From a virus, in the IMG/VR virus record IMGVR_UViG_3300024262_003767: DNA of 64,000 nt; one strand, given 5' to 3'. The position numbers and the translations under genes are program-made. Below the pieces are notes generated by a model that saw only the letters and a program-made list of their open reading frames with translations, did not search any database and was not told where the DNA came from. Each line of letters opens with the position of its first letter. The stretch's first letter is position 1. Of this stretch, positions 7,167-63,868 are shown one piece after another.

Positions 7167-7390
7167 ATCCATTTTCCATTAATTTTAACTTTATCAAGTT
7201 TTGTTAATGTAAATCTCCATTTTTCAGGAAAATCTAATAATCTTAGATTCATTTGTGTTACCATTTTATGAGCAGTTTTATACTCATTTTGATTAGTGTT
7301 CACCTCTATCAATTGATAAGGTGCGTGATACCCATTACGGTGTATCAGATCAACTCTCCAAAGTTGACATCTTTCGCTTGTGTTTGCCAT
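7148..7390 (-). CDS. Hypothetical protein
   Basis: ORF track; stop codon embedded in terminator hairpin 7138-7166. Confidence 0.5.
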   Translation of the reverse strand: MANTSERCQLWRVDLIHRNGYHAPYQLIEVNTNQNEYKTAHKMVTQMNLRLLDFPEKWRFTLTKLDKVKINGKWIEKGLL

Positions 7391-13342: not shown

Positions 13343-13423
13343 AAATTTCCATAAATTATACATTTTTTAAACTTCACAATATTTTTTAATATATAATCAT
13401 CAAATTAAAAAATAATTTGTGAT

Positions 13424-17408: not shown

Positions 17409-17434
17409 TTATAAACTTTTTGACTAAATTTTTT

Positions 17435-17442
17435 TATATATA
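17435..17442 (+). promoter_or_regulatory. TATATATA box
   Basis: 58 nt upstream of the ATG at 17501. Confidence 0.35.
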
Positions 17443-17500: not shown

Positions 17501-18367
17501 ATGACGAAAGTAGATTACAAAACGAATTATATTGAACCTCAAGATTTTAACCTCTTAATTTCAAAATTAAGAGGATTTTTTATGGAAAATGGTTTCCTTG
17601 AGACATTTCCACAACCTAAATTAACAATACTTGCAGCGTGTGAAGACCCAAAAACTGTTAGAAGTTTTGAATTTGGTGGTGAAAAATTTCCACTACCCCA
17701 AACAAATCAGATGAACTTGGAAGAAGAACTTATGGTAGACTCAACAATAGATGGACTTTTTTGCTTAACAGCATCATATAGAGATGAACCAAACCCTATT
17801 GAAGGTCGCCACATGAAATCATTTCCAATGTTTGAAGCAGAACATAAAGGGGATTTTTCAAATCTAATACAAACAATAAGTGAGTGTTGTGTGTATTTAG
17901 GTTTAGTCGAAAAGGTTGCCGATATCCCAATATTCACATATGATGAACTTTGTGAACATTATAAAGTTGAAGATTTAACTTCTACTGAAGAAACATTGAT
18001 GTGTAAAGAATATGGTGATGTTGTCGCTATTACTATGTTTCCTGATAGGACAGATCCATTTTTCAACATGCGTGTTGATGGTTGTAACTTAAAAGGTGAA
18101 AAATTGTCCAACAAAGTAGATTTTATTGTTTGTGGACAGGAAACATTTGGTTGTGCTGAAAGAGAGATAGACATAAACTTAATGAGGAATAACTTCCACA
18201 CAATTAGTAATGGCGGGTATTCTGGACTATTATTTGAAAAATTTGGTAAGGAAAGAGTTGAAAAGGAATTGGAAGACTTTTTGAAATTGCCAATGATTGA
18301 AAGGTGGGGATTTGGTTGTGGTTTGACTAGATTATCAAGAGCAATGAAAAAGAAAGGATTAATTTAA
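17501..18367 (+). CDS. Stand-alone class-II aminoacyl-tRNA-synthetase catalytic core (AsnA/EpmA/AspRS-AsnRS-like), no anticodon-binding domain
   Basis: Motif-2-like ASYRDEPNPIEGRHMKSFPMFEAE and motif-3-like GFGCGLTRLSRAM; 288 aa. Confidence 0.6.
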   Translation: MTKVDYKTNYIEPQDFNLLISKLRGFFMENGFLETFPQPKLTILAACEDPKTVRSFEFGGEKFPLPQTNQMNLEEELMVDSTIDGLFCLTASYRDEPNPIEGRHMKSFPMFEAEHKGDFSNLIQTISECCVYLGLVEKVADIPIFTYDELCEHYKVEDLTSTEETLMCKEYGDVVAITMFPDRTDPFFNMRVDGCNLKGEKLSNKVDFIVCGQETFGCAEREIDINLMRNNFHTISNGGYSGLLFEKFGKERVEKELEDFLKLPMIERWGFGCGLTRLSRAMKKKGLI

Positions 18368-19362
18368 TTAATCCTTTCTTTTTTTAGTAAAATATAATTT
18401 TTACTGATGGAATTATTTATTATTCCTTCATAACTTATTCTATTTGAACCTATCAAATTTAATTTGATATTAAGTTCATTAAAATATTTTCTCATTTCAT
18501 TTCTACCTTGAAATTCTTCAATTTTATCATCTGGACATTTTATTGTATATAACATCAATTTTCTATGTGACATTTGTGATGATTTATTTGTTCTTTTATT
18601 TACACTCCAACTCATATTTCGATAATCATTAGATTTATTATATAGATTATATCCTTTAGATCCATTTTTATATAATATTGCTGCTGGGCTTATTTTGTGT
18701 TTACCTGTTAATTTTTTTTCTTCATTCAATTCTCTAAAATACCCATGTACATTTTTTGAACCACTCATTTTTATTATATCTCCTTGTGGTGTCTTTATTT
18801 CATAAATTACTGATAGTGTTTTTTTTATTTTGTCAATAGTAATGCTAGTTTTATTTTTTTTGTAATTGGCGTTTTTGTGTGTCTCATAATACCTTTTTAA
18901 AGAGTCTCCAATTTTTTTCAATTTAGTTGCACTTCGTTTACTTTCTTGAAATTTTTTTGATATTTTTAACGATGCTGATATATTCTTTTTATGTTTATCT
19001 GTAAAAATTACACCACTTTCACCTTCACCACCATCACTTAAATTTATTAATGATCCTAATTTTAAATCTTTCCTTCCTATCTTTTTTATTGTAAGTTTTT
19101 CTAAATTAAATGATATATTTTCCTTTAAATTTTCATACAATTTAATAATTATTGGTTCTACCCCACTCTCTCTAATTTTTTTAATTTTATAGTACCGTAT
19201 TTTACTTTTTTTTATAACACTTTCATATAAGTGTACTTTAAATCTATCACCCTTACCTTTACCGACATAAAATGGTTCATGATCAAAAATTAAATCATCA
19301 AAAATATATTTACCAGGTTTTCTTGGATCTAAATAAACATAAACATAAAATTCATCACACAT
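18364..19362 (-). CDS. GIY-YIG homing endonuclease
   Basis: FYVYVYLDPRKPGKY ... PFYVGKGKGDRF; NUMOD3-like KHKKNISASLK; antisense, with 3' overlap with the aaRS-like gene. Confidence 0.75.
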   Translation of the reverse strand: MCDEFYVYVYLDPRKPGKYIFDDLIFDHEPFYVGKGKGDRFKVHLYESVIKKSKIRYYKIKKIRESGVEPIIIKLYENLKENISFNLEKLTIKKIGRKDLKLGSLINLSDGGEGESGVIFTDKHKKNISASLKISKKFQESKRSATKLKKIGDSLKRYYETHKNANYKKNKTSITIDKIKKTLSVIYEIKTPQGDIIKMSGSKNVHGYFRELNEEKKLTGKHKISPAAILYKNGSKGYNLYNKSNDYRNMSWSVNKRTNKSSQMSHRKLMLYTIKCPDDKIEEFQGRNEMRKYFNELNIKLNLIGSNRISYEGIINNSISKNYILLKKERIN

Positions 19363-23243: not shown

Positions 23244-23265
23244 AAAACTTTATTAGTTTTACAAA

Positions 23266-23273
23266 TATATATT
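23266..23273 (-). promoter_or_regulatory. TATATATT box
   Basis: 22 nt upstream of the LamG paralogue 1 start at 23243. Confidence 0.4.
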
Positions 23274-24949: not shown

Positions 24950-25249
24950 TTACCTCTCTTTTTTTAATCGTTTTGTTTTTTGTTTTCGTAATTGCCTTCG
25001 TAATGCTTCAGTTGCCATATCAATTGAACGTTCAAAGTTTTCAGATTGTTTTTTTGAATATAAAGAACAACCTTGACAATTTAATTTAATTTCAACAATT
25101 TTATTTTCAGGTTTATTCCCTATTCCTAATATTACGTCAACATCTATAATATGTTGATGATGTTCTGTTAATTTTTTAATTTTTTCTTTTATAAAAAAAA
25201 CGAGTTTATTGTCTGTTTTAAAATGAACAGATTCAATGTTTAAATTCAT
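24950..25249 (-). CDS. hpf: Ribosome hibernation promoting factor (short HPF/RaiA)
   Basis: MNLNIESVHFKTDNKLVFFIKEKIKKL ... ATEALRRQLRKQKTK; matches short HPFs over the full length. Confidence 0.85.
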   Translation of the reverse strand: MNLNIESVHFKTDNKLVFFIKEKIKKLTEHHQHIIDVDVILGIGNKPENKIVEIKLNCQGCSLYSKKQSENFERSIDMATEALRRQLRKQKTKRLKKER

Positions 25250-25333
25250 TGTGCGAATTTTTATTTGTGAAATGAGATTTGATCATCTTATGTTTTATAT
25301 AAGATATTTGAAATGAAGTTTTAAACTTTGGTA

Positions 25334-25684
25334 TTATTTTTCAACATTTTTTGGAATAAACACAGATTTGTTATATCTATTTGTTGTTTCATTATTTAGA
25401 GTGGCAACTTTTTGCACATTTCTAACATTTTTACTTGCATTAAGTACATCCATTTTAAATGCATCTATATAATGATATCTGATGATTTTATTCTTTTTAA
25501 CTTTAGTATAATCCTTTTCAAGATTGATTACTTTTTTTACTTCTAAAAGTGCATCTTCATACCTCTTAAATGGTAATTTATTATATTTTCTCCAATATTT
25601 TATAAATAAAAACCATTTGGTATATTGAATGGTATACTCTTTACTTTCTCCAATAATTATTTCTTTTATTCTAAAATGTCTCAT
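25334..25684 (-). CDS. Hypothetical protein
   Basis: ORF track. Confidence 0.45.
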   Translation of the reverse strand: MRHFRIKEIIIGESKEYTIQYTKWFLFIKYWRKYNKLPFKRYEDALLEVKKVINLEKDYTKVKKNKIIRYHYIDAFKMDVLNASKNVRNVQKVATLNNETTNRYNKSVFIPKNVEK

Positions 25685-25701
25685 ATGTTATATATTATTA
25701 A

Positions 25702-25974
25702 TTAAAAATCCCCAGAAGTAGTAATTTTTTTCACCAAACCATTCTCATCAATTCTAACTGTGTCACCTTCAACTAATGATTTGCTGATTGCATTTGTGGT
25801 TGCTGTTTTATAAATAGTAAACACCTTATTATCACCATCTCTTAATACAATAGAACTTGTTTCTGGATCTATTGCTACCACAATTACTGGTGGTTTGCGA
25901 TTATTTATTCTATTATTTGATGAATAATGACACCCAAACATTAAGAATAATAATAATATGAGTATTTTTTTCAT
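25702..25974 (-). CDS. Lipoprotein
   Basis: MKKILILLLFLMFGC lipobox signal peptide. Confidence 0.6.
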   Translation of the reverse strand: MKKILILLLFLMFGCHYSSNNRINNRKPPVIVVAIDPETSSIVLRDGDNKVFTIYKTATTNAISKSLVEGDTVRIDENGLVKKITTSGDF

Positions 25975-25992
25975 ACTACTTTCTTTTTTTAT

Positions 25993-26000
25993 TATATATT
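25993..26000. promoter_or_regulatory. TATATATT box in a divergent region
   Basis: 18 nt from the minus-strand ATG at 25974; 30 nt from the plus-strand ATG at 26031. Confidence 0.4.
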
Positions 26001-26030
26001 AAATATTATATTTGTAAAAAAATTGTACAT

Positions 26031-26282
26031 ATGTTTGATAAATTACCATATACATCTAAGTTGAAAGTTTGTGAATTGTTTTATCTTGAAACAATTAGGA
26101 TTCCTAAAGATTATTTGTTACCGAAAAAAATATTTTTTTCGTGGAGTTGGATAACTGTTGAAACGTTATCAGGTGAAAGACTATTTAGAAGGGTTGAGGT
26201 TGAGAATTGGTATAATAATAATTTAAAATCAATTAGAAAACATAAATTACTTAGCATAACAAAAAGAGAAATGGTTAGCTAA
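26031..26282 (+). CDS. Hypothetical protein
   Basis: ORF track; ends SIRKHKLLSITKREMVS. Confidence 0.45.
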   Translation: MFDKLPYTSKLKVCELFYLETIRIPKDYLLPKKIFFSWSWITVETLSGERLFRRVEVENWYNNNLKSIRKHKLLSITKREMVS

Positions 26283-26320
26283 ACTAACTACCTCTCTTTA
26301 ATGTATATTTCTTAGGATGA

Positions 26321-26473
26321 CTATTTATCTTTTTTAGTCTCTTTGGTTTCCTTTTCTTCTTTCTTTTCAAGAACATCTTTAGCAACGTCTGTTCTCTTAG
26401 TTTTCTTTGCTGGCTTGTTGTACTTTTCACTATGTTCTGTGAAAGAAAGTAAGTTATTTAATTTATCTGCCAT
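26321..26473 (-). CDS. Small lysine-rich hypothetical protein, 50 aa (below ORF-track cutoff)
   Basis: Own translation: MADKLNNLLSFTEHSEKYNKPAKKTKRTDVAKDVLEKKEEKETKETKKDK; TATATATT box 20 nt upstream. Preferred over the antisense ORF 26343..26525. Confidence 0.3.
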   Translation of the reverse strand: MADKLNNLLSFTEHSEKYNKPAKKTKRTDVAKDVLEKKEEKETKETKKDK

Positions 26474-26493
26474 TTCTTTGTTTTATTTTTTAT

Positions 26494-26501
26494 TATATAT
26501 T
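26494..26501 (-). promoter_or_regulatory. TATATATT box
   Basis: 20 nt upstream of the small-ORF ATG at 26473. Confidence 0.35.
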
Positions 26502-26596
26502 AAAAATATAAACTCATTTTTATAGTCTATATATTAATATTTTTCTTTGTTTTTTCTAACTATCAGAAAAAAGAAAAAACTTATCATACACTTTTT

Positions 26597-26606
26597 TATA
26601 TATATT
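26597..26606 (+). promoter_or_regulatory. TATATATATT box upstream of the leader ORF/structured leader
   Basis: 17 nt upstream of the ATG at 26624. Confidence 0.4.
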
Positions 26607-26623
26607 AGAAATTTAAACTATAA

Positions 26624-26704
26624 ATGAAACATATTTATTCATACAAATCAGGTCTAACAGCGGATTTTTGTTTTAGTGGTTTTAAACAAAAATTCCGTAT
26701 ATGA
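26624..26704 (+). CDS. 26-codon leader/mini-ORF upstream of the YkuK-like gene
   Basis: Own translation: MKHIYSYKSGLTADFCFSGFKQKFRI; ATG 17 nt after the TATATATATT box; covers the left arm of the 13-bp stem. Confidence 0.3.
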   Translation: MKHIYSYKSGLTADFCFSGFKQKFRI

Positions 26705-26728
26705 TTTGCTATATAGTTTAAAACCACT
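26675..26728 (+). promoter_or_regulatory. Candidate antiterminator stem (13-bp perfect inverted repeat)
   Basis: agtggttttaaac (26675-26687) pairs with gtttaaaaccact (26716-26728). The right arm overlaps the left arm of terminator 26720-26746. Confidence 0.4.
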
Positions 26729-26752
26729 TCATTACGAGGTGGTTTTTTATTT
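26720..26752 (+). terminator. Intrinsic terminator 20 nt upstream of the YkuK-like start codon
   Basis: aaaaccacttc / gaggtggtttt 11-bp stem (one G-U pair), 5-nt loop attac, then ttttatttt. Confidence 0.6.
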
Positions 26753-26772
26753 TTAAAAACATACTATAAAAA

Positions 26773-27324
26773 ATGGAACAATTAATTTGGAAAAAATGGA
26801 ATCGGGAAACTATTGATGATATCAATCAGTATGTCTTGGATTATGTAAAAAATGTTGATAGGAATGTTAAGATTATTGTTGGTTGTGACTCACATCCACA
26901 TAGAAGAAGATTAGTATATGCTGTCACTATTATTTTATATAATGAATCACTCAGAAAGGGTGCTCACGTTGTTTATGCTAAAGTAAAAATACCAAGATTG
27001 CGTGATGTTAGTGCAAAAATTAGAAAGGAAGCAGAATTTGTTTATACTGTTGCTGAATCCTTAGACCAAACATTAAGGGGCACTTACTATCATAAGTTTG
27101 ATAAAAATACTTACGATGATACTATCCCAACCAAATTAGTTGAAGTTCACGTTGATGTTAATCCTAAGAGAAACACAAGAAATGGTAGAAAATATTCAAA
27201 TAACTTATCTAATGATGTATATCAAGAAATTATGGGTTGGTTATGTGGTTCAGGTTTCAAGGTGTTCGCTAAACCACATGCGTATGGTTCAACTGGATCT
27301 GCGGATAAATTATCAAAAAGTTAA
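26773..27324 (+). CDS. YkuK/DUF458-like RNase H-fold protein
   Basis: IIVGCDSH, YAVTIILY, VEVHVDVNP, GSGFKVFAKPHAYGSTGSADKLSK match the recalled YkuK pattern. Confidence 0.55.
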   Translation: MEQLIWKKWNRETIDDINQYVLDYVKNVDRNVKIIVGCDSHPHRRRLVYAVTIILYNESLRKGAHVVYAKVKIPRLRDVSAKIRKEAEFVYTVAESLDQTLRGTYYHKFDKNTYDDTIPTKLVEVHVDVNPKRNTRNGRKYSNNLSNDVYQEIMGWLCGSGFKVFAKPHAYGSTGSADKLSKS

Positions 27325-27361
27325 ATTAAAAAGCCTAATTATATTAGGCTTTTTAATTTAA
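27321..27361. terminator. Bidirectional terminator, ~19-bp perfect palindrome including both stop codons
   Basis: ttaaattaaaaagcctaat tat attaggctttttaatttaa between convergent genes. Confidence 0.7.
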
Positions 27362-28216
27362 TTCACCTTCCCAAACAATTTTATATTCATATTTACCTGG
27401 TAGTAGTATAATTTCTCTTTGATTTGTATGGTAATATTGTGTTGGTAATTTCTGTACGTCAACTAGTACATCTTTAGGTTGTACTTCCATCATAATAACA
27501 AAAGGTGGTGATGATGGTTGTTCATCCACAAATCTTCTAGCCACTAATATATTTGTAGTCCAAGATGTCGACATATTGAAATCGGATATAACTTTTTCAC
27601 CAACTTTGTATGGTGGGGTTTTTTTTGAAAAATGTTTTATTTGAACTTCTTCAATACCTTTATAAATCTTTAAAGGTTTATCTGGTTTAAAAGGTTTTAA
27701 TTCGTCTATAATATCTTGTGTTAATTTTGATAATAACAAAGAGCCAGAACCTATATATGAATATAACCAATCATCAGTTTTTTCAGATAATTCAACATTT
27801 ATCCTTTCAGGTGTATGTTTATCATATTTAGTAAATCCTCCAATGTAACGAAAAGATATCACATCTCCATTTTTAATTCTTGCTAACCATTCACCTGTTA
27901 TTGAATGTTTATAAAAATAACCAGAATAATCATCAACATCAACTTCTTCATCTTCACTAAATCCAAAAAAATCTACAATTTGTTTATATAGAGGTTTTTT
28001 TGTTTTAATTTGATAGATATATTCACTATTTATATCAGATGCGTCTGCTCTATTTGTTAAATAGATTCTTTTTAAATGATTTAGATTACTAAAATCTATA
28101 TCTTCTAATTTTAATGGTTCATCAGAATATAAATATAAATTTCCATTATATGTTTTTTGATCGTAATCTACTTCATTATAATCTACAAGTTCAAATAATT
28201 TGAATTTAGTTATCAT
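27353..28216 (-). CDS. Candidate ADP-ribosyltransferase (C3/Vip2-like R-S-E class, variant K-STS-QxE) with unknown N-terminal domain
   Basis: KIYKG (aa 183-187), FNMSTSW (aa 213-219), TNQREIILLPGKYEYKI (aa 264-280; compare the C3 exoenzyme QxE ARTT loop as recalled, roughly Q.E.LLPR....Y.I). 11-nt overlap with the CCA-enzyme gene. Confidence 0.4.
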   Translation of the reverse strand: MITKFKLFELVDYNEVDYDQKTYNGNLYLYSDEPLKLEDIDFSNLNHLKRIYLTNRADASDINSEYIYQIKTKKPLYKQIVDFFGFSEDEEVDVDDYSGYFYKHSITGEWLARIKNGDVISFRYIGGFTKYDKHTPERINVELSEKTDDWLYSYIGSGSLLLSKLTQDIIDELKPFKPDKPLKIYKGIEEVQIKHFSKKTPPYKVGEKVISDFNMSTSWTTNILVARRFVDEQPSSPPFVIMMEVQPKDVLVDVQKLPTQYYHTNQREIILLPGKYEYKIVWEGELN

Positions 28217-29465
28217 TCATAAGATATTCATTTTTGAAACGCACAATCTCTCGTCTTTTCTTTTCTATTTCAATTTCAATTCCTTTGAAACCTTCAGCAG
28301 CTAAATCATTACCATTAACCACAAATCCATCATTACAATAATCAACAAATGGTTTATAGAATTCTTCACCCAAAAACTCATAAATTAAATCATCATCAAT
28401 ATGATATTGATTTTTCATTTTAGCCAAACCGTAAACATTTGAAACGTCAATGTTTTTAAATGATTTCCAATGTAAATCTAATTCCTTCTCAAGTTTGAGC
28501 AAAAATTCAATCTGGTTCACTAACTTGGAACTAAATTTCAATTCACTAATCATATATTTTCTCAATTTACGAATATCATTATCACGAAGTAAATGTGCAA
28601 ATAATATTGCGGAAATAGGTTTTGGTGTAAATCCATCGGGAGATATTTTCAATTTGGGAAACATTTGTTCCCACATATCATATTCAGTTAATAGTCTGAT
28701 ATAATTTTCTAATATTTTGTTTCCGCCTTTTTCTGCGTGTTCAATTACCTTATTCCATTCTTCATGTATTCTTTCTTGTGATACATCTTCTTTGGTACTT
28801 ATACCACGTAGTCTGTTATCACTTTTAATGGCTCTTGATGTCTCAGGTGATATGATACCACCTTTTCTACCTTGGGCTCTTGCAGCGAATCTAAATACTC
28901 TTAAAATTCTTAATCTATCTTCTTTAAATCTCTCAGCAGGATCACCAACAGCACGTATAACATTATTTTCAATATCTTTAACTCCACCAACCAAATCTAC
29001 AATTTCTTTTTTATTTATATCATAGAAAAGAGCATTGATAGTTAAATCTCTACGTTTAACATCATCTTCGATTGTAATATGGTTTCCAATTTCTACTTTA
29101 TCATCATCACCTTTTGTATCTCTACCTCCAGAAATATCTTTTCTAAAAGTTGCTAATTCGTGTCCGAGTGGTTCATCTTCAGTATAAATTCTAAGTACGC
29201 CAAAATTTTTACCTTGTTCATCAGAAACATTCCAACCTTTCAAAATTCTTTTACTTTCTTCTGGTAGAGCATTTGTGACTAAATCAAAATCATGTGGTAT
29301 CTTTTTTTGCAAAAAATCACGAACCGCTCCACCAACAACATAGATATCTTTACCAGCATTATTGAAGGCTCTTGATATTTCTTTAATGTCATAAGGAATA
29401 GGCATCTCAACAGAGATAGTATTTTCAGTTATAAATTCTAAATATTTTTTTAATTTTTCTACCAT
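28206..29465 (-). CDS. cca: tRNA nucleotidyltransferase (CCA-adding enzyme / poly(A) polymerase family)
   Basis: VVGGAVRDFLQKKIPHDFDLVT, RRDLTINALFYD, ERFKEDRLRILRVFRFAAR. Confidence 0.85.
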   Translation of the reverse strand: MVEKLKKYLEFITENTISVEMPIPYDIKEISRAFNNAGKDIYVVGGAVRDFLQKKIPHDFDLVTNALPEESKRILKGWNVSDEQGKNFGVLRIYTEDEPLGHELATFRKDISGGRDTKGDDDKVEIGNHITIEDDVKRRDLTINALFYDINKKEIVDLVGGVKDIENNVIRAVGDPAERFKEDRLRILRVFRFAARAQGRKGGIISPETSRAIKSDNRLRGISTKEDVSQERIHEEWNKVIEHAEKGGNKILENYIRLLTEYDMWEQMFPKLKISPDGFTPKPISAILFAHLLRDNDIRKLRKYMISELKFSSKLVNQIEFLLKLEKELDLHWKSFKNIDVSNVYGLAKMKNQYHIDDDLIYEFLGEEFYKPFVDYCNDGFVVNGNDLAAEGFKGIEIEIEKKRREIVRFKNEYLMNDN

Positions 29466-29499
29466 TTTACAAAGATAAGGTTTTTCTGTTTACATTTTT

Positions 29500-29507
29500 T
29501 ATATATA
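29500..29507. promoter_or_regulatory. TATATATA box in a divergent region
   Basis: 22 nt from the plus-strand ATG at 29530; 34 nt from the cca ATG at 29465. Confidence 0.4.
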
Positions 29508-31366: not shown

Positions 31367-31774
31367 TTATTTTTTTTGAAACTTTTTTATACGCTTAATA
31401 GTTTCTTTAAGATCTTCTTCATAATATAATATTAAAAAGTCAACATCCCTCTCATTAATATTATATCTTTTCATTAAATCATCTATCTCTTCTTTTTTAA
31501 ATTTAGATTTGATTTTTGTGGTTTTATTTATTTTAGTTTGCCAATACCAACCAGGTATATTTGTTGTACTACCAAATATTGCGAACCAAATATCTAATGA
31601 TGATGGTTTATTTATATTTTTATTATTAAAAAATTGTGCTTTTTTTATATCCTTATAGGCGAATTTGCGATTGAGAATAAAAAAATTTCTTTCTTTATCA
31701 TCATCAGTAATAAACCTATATTTATCTTTATCTTTGAAGATGATGTTTCCTAAACTTATAAAATCAATTGCCAT
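31367..31774 (-). CDS. Hypothetical protein
   Basis: ORF track; 1-nt overlap with upstream kinase gene. Confidence 0.5.
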   Translation of the reverse strand: MAIDFISLGNIIFKDKDKYRFITDDDKERNFFILNRKFAYKDIKKAQFFNNKNINKPSSLDIWFAIFGSTTNIPGWYWQTKINKTTKIKSKFKKEEIDDLMKRYNINERDVDFLILYYEEDLKETIKRIKKFQKK

Positions 31775-33954
31775 TAATAAAATTGTTTAAATATTTTTGA
31801 GATTTTTTCTTTTGTTATTGGTTTTACAATTTGAAAATCTATATTCTTCTCTACCATATCTGTGGTAGATATTGTAATTATAGTTAACTCTTCATCTATT
31901 TGTTTTAATTTTTCTATGAAATCTAGTATATTAATATTTGATAAACTCATATCTATAAATATTGCATCAATATCACCTAATTTTTCTTCAAGTACATCAA
32001 GTGTTTCCTTTGATGATAGTGTCCATTTAATTTTAACATTCATAGATTTTAACATTATACCTAATAATGAATAGTTTTCAGGTATATCTTCTAATACTAT
32101 CACTTTAATATTAGAAAAATCATACACAATTTTATTAACTTGTTTTGTTTGAATATTTTGAACTTCTTGTAATGGAAGAGTAAAAAAGAATGTGCTTCCT
32201 TCTTTTTGAGTTGAATCTACCCATATATTTCCACCAAGTATATTAACTATACTTTTTGCGATAGATAATCCCAATCCTGTACCTTGGTATTGTTTTTTTG
32301 ATGATGCATCAACTTGCATAAATTTATCAAAAACTATTTCTAATTTATCTTCTGGAATACCAATACCAGTATCTTCAACAAAGAATGTTATAATATTGTC
32401 TTTTATTCTTGTACCAATTCTTATATGTCCACTTTCAGTAAATTTAATTGCATTACTAATCAAATTATATAATACCTGTTTTAATCTAAGAAAATCAGAC
32501 ACTATTATTTCATTATCTTCTCGTTTTTCGAAAGTTAATTTTACCGAATCTATATTCTTTCTAATATTTATATCTATAAAAATTTCTTCTAATTCTTCAA
32601 ATAAATCATTGATTGGGAATCGTTCATATAATAGTTCTAAATTTAATTCACCTGCTTCAATTTTAGCATAATCTAATATGTTATTTAATAATTCTTCTAA
32701 ATGTTTTGCATTAGCATTTATAGTTTTAAGAAATTTTTTATTATTGGTAGTATCAAACTTATCATCTAATAATATATCTGAAAAGCCTATAATCGAATTC
32801 ATTGGCGTTCTTATTTCGTGACTCATATTTGCCAAAAATAGTGACTTTAAAAGATCACTTTTTTCTGCTTCTATTTTTGATTTTTCTAATTCTATTTTAA
32901 TATTTTCTTGTTCTGTAATATCTTTACAATGAATTGCAATATACTCCGTTGAGCCATTATCATTTAAAATGGGATATATGTAATTTTCAAAATATTTATT
33001 ATTTATAACATCAATAAAATGTACTGGTTTGCCTGTAAATATTGCTTCAAGTGTTCTTTTTCTTTTGGGTTCTACACTCTCTTTAGGTAAAATCTGTGAT
33101 ATGTTCACTCCTACTAATTCTTCTCTTGTTTTATTAAAATATTTACAACCTCTATCATTTATTGCTAATAACTCACCTACTTTATTTGTTAAATAAGATG
33201 CACTTAATGTTGAATTTATAATATCTAAGTGTTGTCTCTCCTTTATTTTCATATCAGTAATATCTTGAAATATGGTAACAAAACGATGTGAGTTTTGTTT
33301 ATATGCATCAATTAAAAACCATTTCTGAAAAATATATGAATATTTTTCAAAATGTAAAGTCTTATTATCAGTAAATATTTGAGAATATATCCTTATCCAT
33401 TCACTCGAATCTTTATCTAATATTTCAGTTATATTTTTTCCAATAATTTCTGAATCTAAACCTGTGGTTTCGGTGAACGCTTTATTTATTCTAACAAATT
33501 TATAATCAATAGGTTTGCCACTATTATCAAATATCATTTCATGTAGAGAAAATGCTCGACTCATATTATCAATAATCTTTTCAAGTTCTTCACTTTTAAA
33601 AATATAATCTTTACTTATTTGAGATAAATGTTTTTCATCTTGATATACAACATGTACAAAATTTTCCTCACCTCGATAGATATAATTATATCTCCAACGA
33701 TTAAATTTATCGTCTTTATACTCTTTTAATTCGTGTGTCATACATTCTCCACTATCATACACTTTTAATATTTTATCATAAATACCAAAGTCGATTACTT
33801 TAGAAAAAACATCAACCAATTTTTTATCAATAACATCATATTCAATTCTTTCTACCGTATAAAAATTTTCTGATACTTCGTGAAAATATATATCTTCATC
33901 GATAATTTTATATGTGATAGAAACAAAATCAAAAATTTTTTCAAAATTTTTCAT
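31774..33954 (-). CDS. Soluble PAS-PAS hybrid sensor histidine kinase with C-terminal receiver domain
   Basis: H-box FLANMSHEIRTPMNSIIGF, N-box NLISNAIKFT, G1 DTGIGI, G2 GTGLGLSI. Receiver IKVIVLED..AIFIDMSL..IITIST..IVKPI. No TM segment. Confidence 0.85.
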   Translation of the reverse strand: MKNFEKIFDFVSITYKIIDEDIYFHEVSENFYTVERIEYDVIDKKLVDVFSKVIDFGIYDKILKVYDSGECMTHELKEYKDDKFNRWRYNYIYRGEENFVHVVYQDEKHLSQISKDYIFKSEELEKIIDNMSRAFSLHEMIFDNSGKPIDYKFVRINKAFTETTGLDSEIIGKNITEILDKDSSEWIRIYSQIFTDNKTLHFEKYSYIFQKWFLIDAYKQNSHRFVTIFQDITDMKIKERQHLDIINSTLSASYLTNKVGELLAINDRGCKYFNKTREELVGVNISQILPKESVEPKRKRTLEAIFTGKPVHFIDVINNKYFENYIYPILNDNGSTEYIAIHCKDITEQENIKIELEKSKIEAEKSDLLKSLFLANMSHEIRTPMNSIIGFSDILLDDKFDTTNNKKFLKTINANAKHLEELLNNILDYAKIEAGELNLELLYERFPINDLFEELEEIFIDINIRKNIDSVKLTFEKREDNEIIVSDFLRLKQVLYNLISNAIKFTESGHIRIGTRIKDNIITFFVEDTGIGIPEDKLEIVFDKFMQVDASSKKQYQGTGLGLSIAKSIVNILGGNIWVDSTQKEGSTFFFTLPLQEVQNIQTKQVNKIVYDFSNIKVIVLEDIPENYSLLGIMLKSMNVKIKWTLSSKETLDVLEEKLGDIDAIFIDMSLSNINILDFIEKLKQIDEELTIITISTTDMVEKNIDFQIVKPITKEKISKIFKQFY

Positions 33955-34876: not shown

Positions 34877-34916
34877 AATAAAAAAAGGGAGATGAAAGTC
34901 TCCCTTTTTTTTATTT
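34876..34916. terminator. Bidirectional terminator
   Basis: aaataaaaaaa gggaga tgaaag tctccc ttttttttattt between convergent genes. Confidence 0.7.
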
Positions 34917-39912: not shown

Positions 39913-39923
39913 AACAAAAACTT

Positions 39924-39967
39924 TTCTAAACAAAAAAAGAGGCTCACGCCTCTTTTTTTGTTTAGAA
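39924..39967. terminator. Bidirectional terminator, 20-bp perfect palindrome
   Basis: ttctaaacaaaaaaagaggc tcac gcctctttttttgtttagaa between nusG and the S1 gene. Confidence 0.75.
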
Positions 39968-39975
39968 AAAATGGA

Positions 39976-63768: not shown

Positions 63769-63780
63769 ATGAAATTCTAA

Positions 63781-63828
63781 ATACAAATAAAAAAACCAAT
63801 CATTTTTGATTGGTTTTTTTATTTGTAT
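63781..63828. terminator. Terminator, 22-bp perfect palindrome
   Basis: atacaaataaaaaaaccaatca tttt tgattggtttttttatttgtat. Confidence 0.75.
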
Positions 63829-63868
63829 TTTTTTATTACTTTTGTGACATTATTATAAAATTTTTAAT

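Follow-up and report, generated by a model that had tools for sequence, protein, structure and literature searches.

Organization of the YkuK leader

In a 64,000-nucleotide (nt) stretch of viral DNA from the IMG/VR virus record IMGVR_UViG_3300024262_003767 (the window; about 26% G+C), a gene for a YkuK-like protein is preceded by a compact element at 26577–26772. The element comprises a promoter-like motif, a short open reading frame (ORF; here the mini-ORF) and an intrinsic terminator, after which the YkuK-like gene begins (Table 1). The protein matches its Pfam family over residues 19–182 (E = 2.2e-23, 83.3 bits against a cutoff of 25), and its start codon lies about 20 nt past the T-run of the terminator. 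A first-pass annotation of this DNA had described a box at 26597, an ORF beginning 17 nt later and a 13-base-pair (bp) stem whose right arm overlaps the left arm of the terminator, so that the two structures exclude one another. All of these are present, and the overlap spans 26720–26728. The best reading that we can offer is that the element is a leader-peptide (ribosome-mediated) transcription attenuator of the YkuK-like gene, a reading to which we give a probability of about 0.5.

Table 1. Positions of the leader features, the YkuK-like gene and comparable sequences elsewhere in the window
Feature	Position	Strand	Remarks
Bipartite promoter-like motif	26577–26606	+	AAACTT at 26577–26582, 15-nt spacer, TATATATA(TT) box at 26597–26606
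P1, 5′ strand	26612–26622	+	UUUAAACUAUA; just 5′ of the mini-ORF start; pairs with 26712–26722
Mini-ORF	26624–26704	+	26 codons plus stop, MKHIYSYKSGLTADFCFSGFKQKFRI; first ATG past the promoter box
P2b helix	26644–26708	+	26644–26650 (CAAAUCA) with 26702–26708 (UGAUUUG), including the stop codon; encloses P3
P3 hairpin in the mini-ORF	26660–26699	+	Equivalent of segment 1:2; 10-nt loop and upper 3′ strand carry arm1
arm1, putative antiterminator 5′ arm	26675–26687	+	AGUGGUUUUAAAC; codons 18–22 of the mini-ORF
arm2, shared segment	26716–26728	+	GUUUAAAACCACU; possible partners arm1, P1 5′ strand (with 26712–26722) and arm3
Intrinsic terminator	26720–26753	+	Hairpin 26720–26746 (−12.9 kcal/mol) and U-run UUUUUUAUUUUU
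YkuK/DUF458 RNase H-like protein	26773–27324	+	183 amino acids; PF04308
Bidirectional terminator 3′ of the YkuK gene	27321–27361		
Copies of the promoter-like motif	7464–7437(−), 13369–13395(+), 17413–17442(+), 20734–20708(−), 23245–23271(+), 26577–26604(+), 35799–35772(−)		
Seven other perfect inverted repeats	18347–18383, 27321–27361, 34880–34911, 39922–39969, 46900–46933, 52130–52166, 63779–63830		13–24 bp, loops of 3–6 nt, A-/T-run flanks

The box TATATATATT at 26597–26606 is the downstream half of a bipartite motif. Searched as AAACTT-N12-22-ATATATA, this motif has seven copies in the window against 0.40 expected, a number reached by none of 100 shuffled sequences. The seven copies take the form AAACTT-N14-17-(T/A)ATATATA and lie mostly just 5′ of ORFs of the same orientation. 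The sigma-70 consensus is not enriched in the window (158 occurrences against 161 in shuffles). Enrichment and position point to a promoter function for the motif, and its seven copies suggest a promoter class specific to the phage or its host.

Related loci were taken from uncultured huge-phage contigs of up to 501 kb in metagenomes and IMG/VR, and are designated here by L numbers. In element-bearing relatives, exactly one motif copy stands 5′ of the mini-ORF at every locus. At none of these loci does the motif occur between the terminator and the YkuK ATG, in agreement with the annotation's statement that there is no room there for the gene's own promoter; a promoter of another type could still lie there. 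In relatives without the element (L016/17, L028 and L029/30), the same motif is found 24–27 nt from the YkuK ATG, compared with 168 nt in the window, where the element is present. Because the motif directly precedes YkuK in these relatives, the element lies inside the YkuK leader, having been either inserted into that leader or deleted from it. The nearest gene 5′ of the element is divergent (26321–26473, minus strand), so the terminator cannot belong to a preceding co-directional gene. On the best reading, 26577–26772 supplies the YkuK-like gene with its promoter and the leader of its transcript.

A different leader occurs in L046 (183–275), where the promoter motif is followed by a plain hairpin (CACAAUAA...UUAUUGUG), GUUUUUU and then YkuK, with no mini-ORF. 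It looks like a deletion derivative of the element.

A conserved reading frame within the leader

About 19 distinct related loci share the order of promoter motif, mini-ORF, terminator and YkuK gene. A homologous ORF that begins with ATG and runs for 18–27 codons occurs in 19 of 20 distinct loci. Over this length its frame is open in 19 of the 20 sequences, while the +1 and +2 frames close after a mean of 1.5 and 7.8 codons, respectively. The ATG follows the box by about 17–20 nt in the window. The distance from the ATG to a conserved anchor is 34, 37, 40 or 58 nt in clade 1 and 39, 42 or 45 nt in clade 2, giving a single phase per clade. At least five independent length changes have occurred within the ORF and all are multiples of three (chance probability about (1/3)^5); in the flanks, both just ahead of the ATG and past the stop codon up to the terminator, insertions and deletions span 1 or 2 nt.

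Among seven close relatives, the ratio of nonsynonymous to synonymous change (pN/pS) is 0.94 at codons 2–13 and 0.25 at codons 14–26, where pS is also depressed. Retention of the frame at an N-terminal pN/pS of about 0.9 indicates that it is the frame, not the N-terminal peptide sequence, that matters, in keeping with a leader peptide. The C-terminal half, which bears the RNA structure, is constrained at the nucleotide level; between clades the C-terminal halves are unrelated (..DFCFSGFKQKFRI, ..ADKLRQRV and ..LSGDSIRC). Eight peptides of the family gave no match in Pfam or NCBIfam at E ≤ 10, and thus none to an NCBIfam leader peptide. Collectively, these patterns suggest that the mini-ORF is translated, or at least kept translatable. 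A gene on the minus strand was rejected as a candidate: the stop-free runs of 30–50 codons there show no conservation of start or frame and are missing from L018 and L021.

In loci of the distant clades (L009, L021, L024, L026, L027, L031, L033, L039 and L001), the mini-ORF ATG stands 6–14 nt after the TATATA box, and the leader messenger RNA (mRNA) of these clades may be leaderless or nearly so. Elsewhere in the window, a 7-codon ORF (7431–7408, minus strand; ATG AGG TAT TTT AAT ACA TCG TAG) begins 5 nt after another motif copy, ahead of an ORF starting at 7390; this may be chance.

Mutually exclusive RNA structures

A 151-nt stretch of the leader folds at z = −5.5 relative to shuffled sequences, and its counterpart in L001 at z = −6.0. 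The minimum free energy (MFE) structure of the naked RNA is a rod plus the terminator (−35.6 kcal/mol), compared with −23.5 kcal/mol when pairing of arm1 with arm2 is forced. The rod is composed of P1, a small P2 at the AUG, P2b and P3 (26660–26673 with 26684–26697), and is modelled as a thermodynamic ground state that would act as an anti-antiterminator. The P1 duplex (−9.4 kcal/mol, p = 0.017 against shuffles) shows compensatory changes in L007 (inserted A with inserted T) and L006 (T>A with A>T); outside the window subgroup and L001 it is neither significant nor conserved. P2b is weakly conserved, with one uncompensated mismatch in L003. P3 (−12.2 kcal/mol) appears in the RNAalifold consensus of eight close relatives, in which two of its pairs are changed on both sides (L020 and L006), and would serve as an anti-antiterminator or possibly a pause hairpin. 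In the other clades the corresponding part of the ORF also has a hairpin, though its sequence differs. In L020, the mini-ORF frame stays open and has an in-frame internal ATG 15 codons ahead of its stop; two substitutions that shift the pairing register repair P3.

The two arms of the 13-bp stem, AGTGGTTTTAAAC (26675–26687) and GTTTAAAACCACT (26716–26728), are a perfect inverted repeat with a 28-nt spacer. Allowing up to two mismatches, AGTGGTTTTAAAC is found in the window only at these two arms. Their duplex has a predicted free energy of −17.3 kcal/mol and scores z = −6.3 relative to shuffled sequences. The window contains eight perfect inverted repeats that are 13 bp or longer and have loops of 3–60 nt, against 0.48 expected, a 16-fold enrichment. 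The other seven (Table 1) look like bidirectional intrinsic terminators at gene ends, and as such would support the presence of working terminators in this genome.

The terminator hairpin has 11 pairs (4 G–C) and a 5-nt loop and is followed by TTATTTTTAA; a scan of 1.6 kb returned two terminator-like sites against 0.3 expected. It is kept in all element-bearing relatives. Among the close relatives, 90% of its cells pair and none of 500 shuffles reaches the observed covariation score, which is stronger support than the arm1:arm2 duplex receives.

A covariance model built from eight close relatives identifies just one copy of the element in the window, scoring 164 bits. Outside its training set, the model recovers the homologous site 5′ of YkuK in L047, L015, L033, L024, L021 and L009 (E values from 5e-6 to 0.05) and, more weakly, in L026 and L001, indicating that the clades share one ancestral element. 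A further weak match in L001 (4772–4901, plus strand; 26 bits) was rejected as a copy; it is a long perfect hairpin with a terminator beside TnpB, probably the end of an insertion sequence (IS) element.

Conservation of the putative antiterminator

The close clade, in which YkuK is at least 72% identical, comprises 11 sequences (the window, L003–L007, L020, L045, L047, L018 and L015). In ten of them the arm1:arm2 duplex is significant, scoring between z = −2.3 and z = −7.4. When the three arms are tabulated in register and aligned without gaps, 84.6% of arm1:arm2 cells pair, against 28–52% when the partner is slid. Three pairs are changed on both sides (U–A to G–C in L006, U–A to A–U in L018 and U–A to C–G in L047), and the covariation score was reached in 20 of 500 shuffles. 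The change in L018 is not mirrored in arm3 of the terminator and is therefore specific to the antiterminator.

The mini-ORF stops between arm1 and arm2 in all close relatives, and at arm1 itself in L018 and L047, so that a terminating ribosome would always mask arm1. In nascent RNA before arm3 is made, the MFE structure is the antiterminator in five of the 11 sequences (L003, L045, L006, L047 and L018) and the rod in the window, L004, L005, L007 and L020. Without a ribosome, the outcome is thus not conserved; with one that has reached the end of the ORF, it is.

A number of observations weigh against attenuation. At equilibrium the terminator forms in the window with P ≥ 0.98 at every simulated ribosome position, and only L018 switches; any switch must therefore be kinetic, as in classical attenuators. 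Clades 2 and 3 and L001 (YkuK 55–63% identical) have no significant antiterminator (duplex p = 0.17–0.84), and the test for nascent-arm sequestration in them gave p values mostly above 0.1. Within the close clade, three double changes were reached in 30 of 500 shuffles, which makes the arm1:arm2 covariation, drawn from ten sequences, moderately significant. The peptide contains no run of regulatory codons, a classical feature of attenuators, and it is not conserved between clades. Rare codons do occur in the zone in which stalling would free arm1, with CTA at codon 11 (6.6 per 1000) and GCG at codon 13 (2.8 per 1000), and an NCG codon recurs at the codon-13 position in 8 of 11 close relatives; both lie in or next to the P3 stem, where codon choice and structure are confounded, and they provide only a lead. 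L020 (2853–2935) has ACG in place of the ATG, and L046 keeps its hairpin and T-run although the ORF is gone. The motif is not of the sigma-70 type, and the polymerase that uses it may or may not respond to intrinsic terminators. Finally, we infer regulation, transcription start, 3′ ends and translation alike.

Clades 2 and 3 and L001 keep the mini-ORF, the internal hairpin and the terminator, and the only recurrent pairing in them is a 5-bp AGGUG:CACCU. A reading of the clade-2 AGGUG as a Shine–Dalgarno sequence was dropped, as no consistent start codon lies downstream. A metric of nascent-RNA sequestration gave a uniform picture in all clades, compatible with a switch, but was indistinguishable from dinucleotide shuffles and is unused as evidence.

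The translation-coupled attenuator proposed in the first-pass annotation is upheld in part. The frame is kept in 19 of 20 sequences, the terminator covaries and the close clade has an antiterminator with three compensatory changes; the proposal had missed the competing rod, and the analysis finds no equilibrium switch in the window, no significant antiterminator in distant relatives and no codon run. Folding and conservation of the paired arms, which the annotation had named as checks, give similarly divided results: the fold is strong, but its minimum is the rod with the terminator rather than the 13-bp stem, and the arms are conserved in the close clade (10 of 11) but not in clades 2 and 3 or L001.

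A model for ribosome-mediated attenuation

In the model that we propose, transcription would start a few nt past the TATATATA box. The first AUG then opens an ORF that runs across P3 and arm1 and stops 12 nt before arm2, a segment for which three partners are predicted, each excluding the others: arm1, giving the 13-bp antiterminator; the 5′ leader, giving P1; and arm3, giving the terminator. A ribosome in the last third of the ORF or at its stop while polymerase makes arm2 and arm3 would cover arm1 and allow the terminator to form, releasing a leader RNA of about 135–140 nt without YkuK. A ribosome that lags in the first half, with its P-site no further than about codon 13, would hold P2b and the 5′ strand of P3 open and shield P1, and arm1, then free, would pair with the emerging arm2 and permit read-through into YkuK. 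Without a ribosome, the window RNA would be expected to fold into the P1/P2b/P3 rod plus the terminator and to terminate, as in trp 'superattenuation', a behaviour in which close relatives differ. Overall, YkuK would be produced when translation of the leader is slow. Candidate signals are general translation capacity or the supply of rare-codon transfer RNA (tRNA) at CTA (codon 11) or GCG (codon 13).

A more far-reaching proposal, which we regard as a long shot, is that the element works as a phage-borne sensor of translation capacity. Slowed host elongation would cause ribosomes to lag on the leader ORF and so turn on the RNase H-like nuclease, which would belong to a translation-maintenance module with the neighbouring genes for HPF, a CCA-adding enzyme and an aminoacyl-tRNA synthetase (aaRS)-like protein. 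Possible causes of such slowing include anticodon-nuclease or other abortive-infection defences, shortage of rare NCG/CTA tRNAs and ribosome hibernation. On this proposal, a trans-acting role for the leader RNA or peptide that is set free is also conceivable.

Alternative explanations

The same layout could belong to a separate micropeptide gene, complete with promoter and terminator; YkuK would then be expressed by constitutive leaky read-through, and the arm1:arm2 pairing would be secondary, for example in mRNA folding or stability. The unit is self-contained (motif, ATG 19–23 nt past the box and canonical terminator), its ORF is conserved in all clades with some residues recurring between them (MK.., SY, FN and L-A-D), and both the strong equilibrium preference for the terminator and the lack of a significant antiterminator in distant clades would suit such a gene. 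A functional peptide is, however, hard to reconcile with a pN/pS of about 0.94 across the N-terminal half, with C-terminal halves that are unrelated between clades (FCFSGFKQKFRI, KLRQRV and SGDSIRC), or with a length that varies from 18 to 27 codons and a C terminus that is cut off in L018, L047 and L006. The ATG is lost in L020 and the peptide matches no family. The element is also found only directly 5′ of YkuK and is missing from several relatives that keep YkuK, and arm1:arm2 covaries, features that also speak against a free-standing gene. On balance we consider this explanation, the main rival to attenuation, unlikely, though it deserves to be taken seriously.

A structured cis-acting RNA switch independent of translation, or a released small RNA, would make the ORF incidental; a ligand, a protein (possibly YkuK) or a tRNA would then stabilize the P1/P3 rod or the antiterminator. 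Such a view draws on the folding of the window and L001, far better than that of shuffles, on the significance of P1 in the window subgroup and L001, and on the resemblance of a closing helix followed by a terminator to a riboswitch aptamer with its expression platform. Compensatory changes in P3 and a hairpin at the same position in all clades fit it too. A non-coding RNA would nevertheless have no need of a conserved frame and ATG or of length changes confined to multiples of three. Most relatives lack a conserved P1, the clades have no block of unpaired nucleotides in common, and Rfam gave no match at the gathering score and no T-box or riboswitch model even at E ≤ 10. The ligand-controlled switch that the annotation had listed as an alternative is disfavoured; an independent micropeptide or small RNA gene, which it had also listed, retains some likelihood. 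Taken together, a switch or small RNA independent of translation is improbable and ranks behind the micropeptide gene. A T-box, with UGGU of arm1 contacting the NCCA end of a tRNA, was considered and dropped, there being neither a T-box model match nor a Stem I. We give almost no credence to chance, by which an ordinary terminator or a rearrangement leftover in AT-rich DNA would have come to be accompanied by an ORF and an inverted repeat of no significance. AT-rich sequence does offer many weak pairings, the minus strand here also has its stop-free runs of 30–50 codons, and nascent-arm sequestration is not significant against shuffles. Chance would nonetheless have to account for a layout conserved in about 19 distinct loci whose YkuK identities run from 53% to 92%, and which are not near-identical strains, together with the conserved frame, the strong duplex z-scores, the covariation and the 16-fold excess of perfect inverted repeats of at least 13 bp; the minus-strand runs, for their part, lack a conserved start or frame.

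Relation to known regulators

Attenuation through a leader peptide is a textbook mode of regulation for bacterial amino-acid operons and certain resistance genes. The attenuator proposed here resembles those of trpL, pheL, hisL, thrL and leuL in having a short ORF directly after the promoter, in the classical order of overlapping segments 1:2 (P3), 2:3 (arm1:arm2) and 3:4 (terminator), in a leader stop codon located before segment 3 and in a structural gene without a promoter of its own. The predicted termination of the window RNA without translation parallels trp superattenuation. The window peptide begins MKHI, as does Escherichia coli PheL, probably by coincidence. Unlike these operon leaders, the phage element has no run of codons for a single amino acid and matches no Rfam leader family or NCBIfam leader peptide; its ORF spans segments 1 and 2, and an additional long-range helix, P1, connects the 5′ leader with segment 3. 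It also precedes the gene of an uncharacterized RNase H-like nuclease rather than a biosynthetic operon, and resides in an uncultured AT-rich huge phage.

The ermC, cat and cmlA leaders offer a second comparison. They too have ORFs of about 20–30 codons in which the peptide's own sequence, rather than a codon run, could set the stall, and a stall in the first half would likewise free a downstream segment. By analogy, the clade-1 peptide core DFCFSG might in principle be an arrest motif. In contrast to those leaders, no resistance gene lies downstream, and the peptide core coincides with RNA structure, making selection on the peptide inseparable from selection on the RNA. Most erm and cat leaders control translation, not termination.

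The PASIFIC class covers terminator-type riboswitches and other conditional terminators in 5′ untranslated regions (PMC5314783). As in that class, a terminator and an antiterminator that exclude one another share a strand here, and the 3′ strand of P1 overlaps the expression platform; the conserved reading frame, the lack of a conserved ligand-binding core and the lack of an Rfam match set the element apart. In Sinorhizobium, the rnTrpL small RNA and the peTrpL peptide are dual-function products of an attenuator (PMC6614838, PMC7298713). A terminated leader of the present element would similarly be a stable, structured RNA of about 135–140 nt encoding a small peptide, and could act in trans; unlike for rnTrpL and peTrpL, no target or trans function can be deduced for it.

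Genomic context and database searches

The Rfam search gave no match for the whole window at the gathering score. At E ≤ 10, the region 26400–26850 gave only sub-threshold matches, the best of them to microRNA hairpins and led by mir-203 (32 bits; gathering score 65). No conserved aptamer core whose unpaired nucleotides are invariant was found: the clades have in common only their layout and the terminator core GCCAC, and the sequences of P1 and the junction differ or are absent. Scans of IMG/VR with ATTTTTGYTTTAGTGG and with AGGTG..GCCACYTA..GTGGC yielded only chance matches and no new copies of the element among the matches listed. The scan with TAGTGGTT..AACCACYT..RGTGGTT also yielded chance matches only and no new copies.

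At E ≤ 1e-20, 41 YkuK homologues were found in metagenomes. Phage records in GenBank contain matches to the YkuK protein in only three genomes, all from uncultured phages (484–642 kb; 27–36% identity), and a megablast of 25000–29500 against phage GenBank records returned no matches. The element is absent from the loci of distant YkuK homologues in LR756502 and LR745206. One relative lies in a metagenome-assembled genome of Muribaculaceae. In two relatives, TnpB/OrfB_IS605 genes are inserted beside the YkuK locus (L001, 3557–4720, minus strand; L016, 632–1846, minus strand).

Several auxiliary genes of the window with links to translation lie on either side of the YkuK locus. They include HPF, a ribosome hibernation factor (PF02482; 24950–25249, minus strand), a CCA-adding enzyme or poly(A) polymerase (PF01743; 28206–29465, minus strand) and a class-II aaRS-like ORF judged from its N-terminal sequence alone (17501–18367, plus strand). 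A possible second attenuator at 17551–17574 was rejected, being a hairpin inside this aaRS-like ORF. The window also encodes a ClpB-like AAA+ chaperone, a hybrid histidine kinase with a receiver domain and NAPRTase (46956–49472, 31774–33954 and 50077–51375, respectively, all on the minus strand). Such auxiliary genes are typical of huge phages. ARAGORN found no tRNA or tmRNA genes in the window.

A second TATATA-type box lies at 26487–26514 and is 86% identical to 26592–26619. Read on the minus strand as TAATATATAAT, it is located 24 nt upstream of the divergent lysine-rich ORF of 50 amino acids (26473–26321) and may be the promoter of that ORF.

Implications

YkuK/DUF458 is known only as an uncharacterized RNase H-like clade (PMC3985635), and our literature searches returned nothing on its regulation. 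The searchable literature likewise describes no leader-peptide attenuator in a phage genome and none before a nuclease gene. The best available account of the element is one that works in the manner of trp or pheL leaders, yet without a regulatory codon run and in no catalogued family. With about 19 members, it would constitute a new family of cis-regulatory RNA that could enter RNA databases, and the analysis provides a candidate promoter consensus, AAACTT-N14-17-TAATATATA, for a clade of uncultured phages. If attenuation is borne out, the element would give a first regulatory handle on the YkuK/DUF458 family and would mean that huge phages couple the expression of auxiliary genes directly to ribosome traffic.

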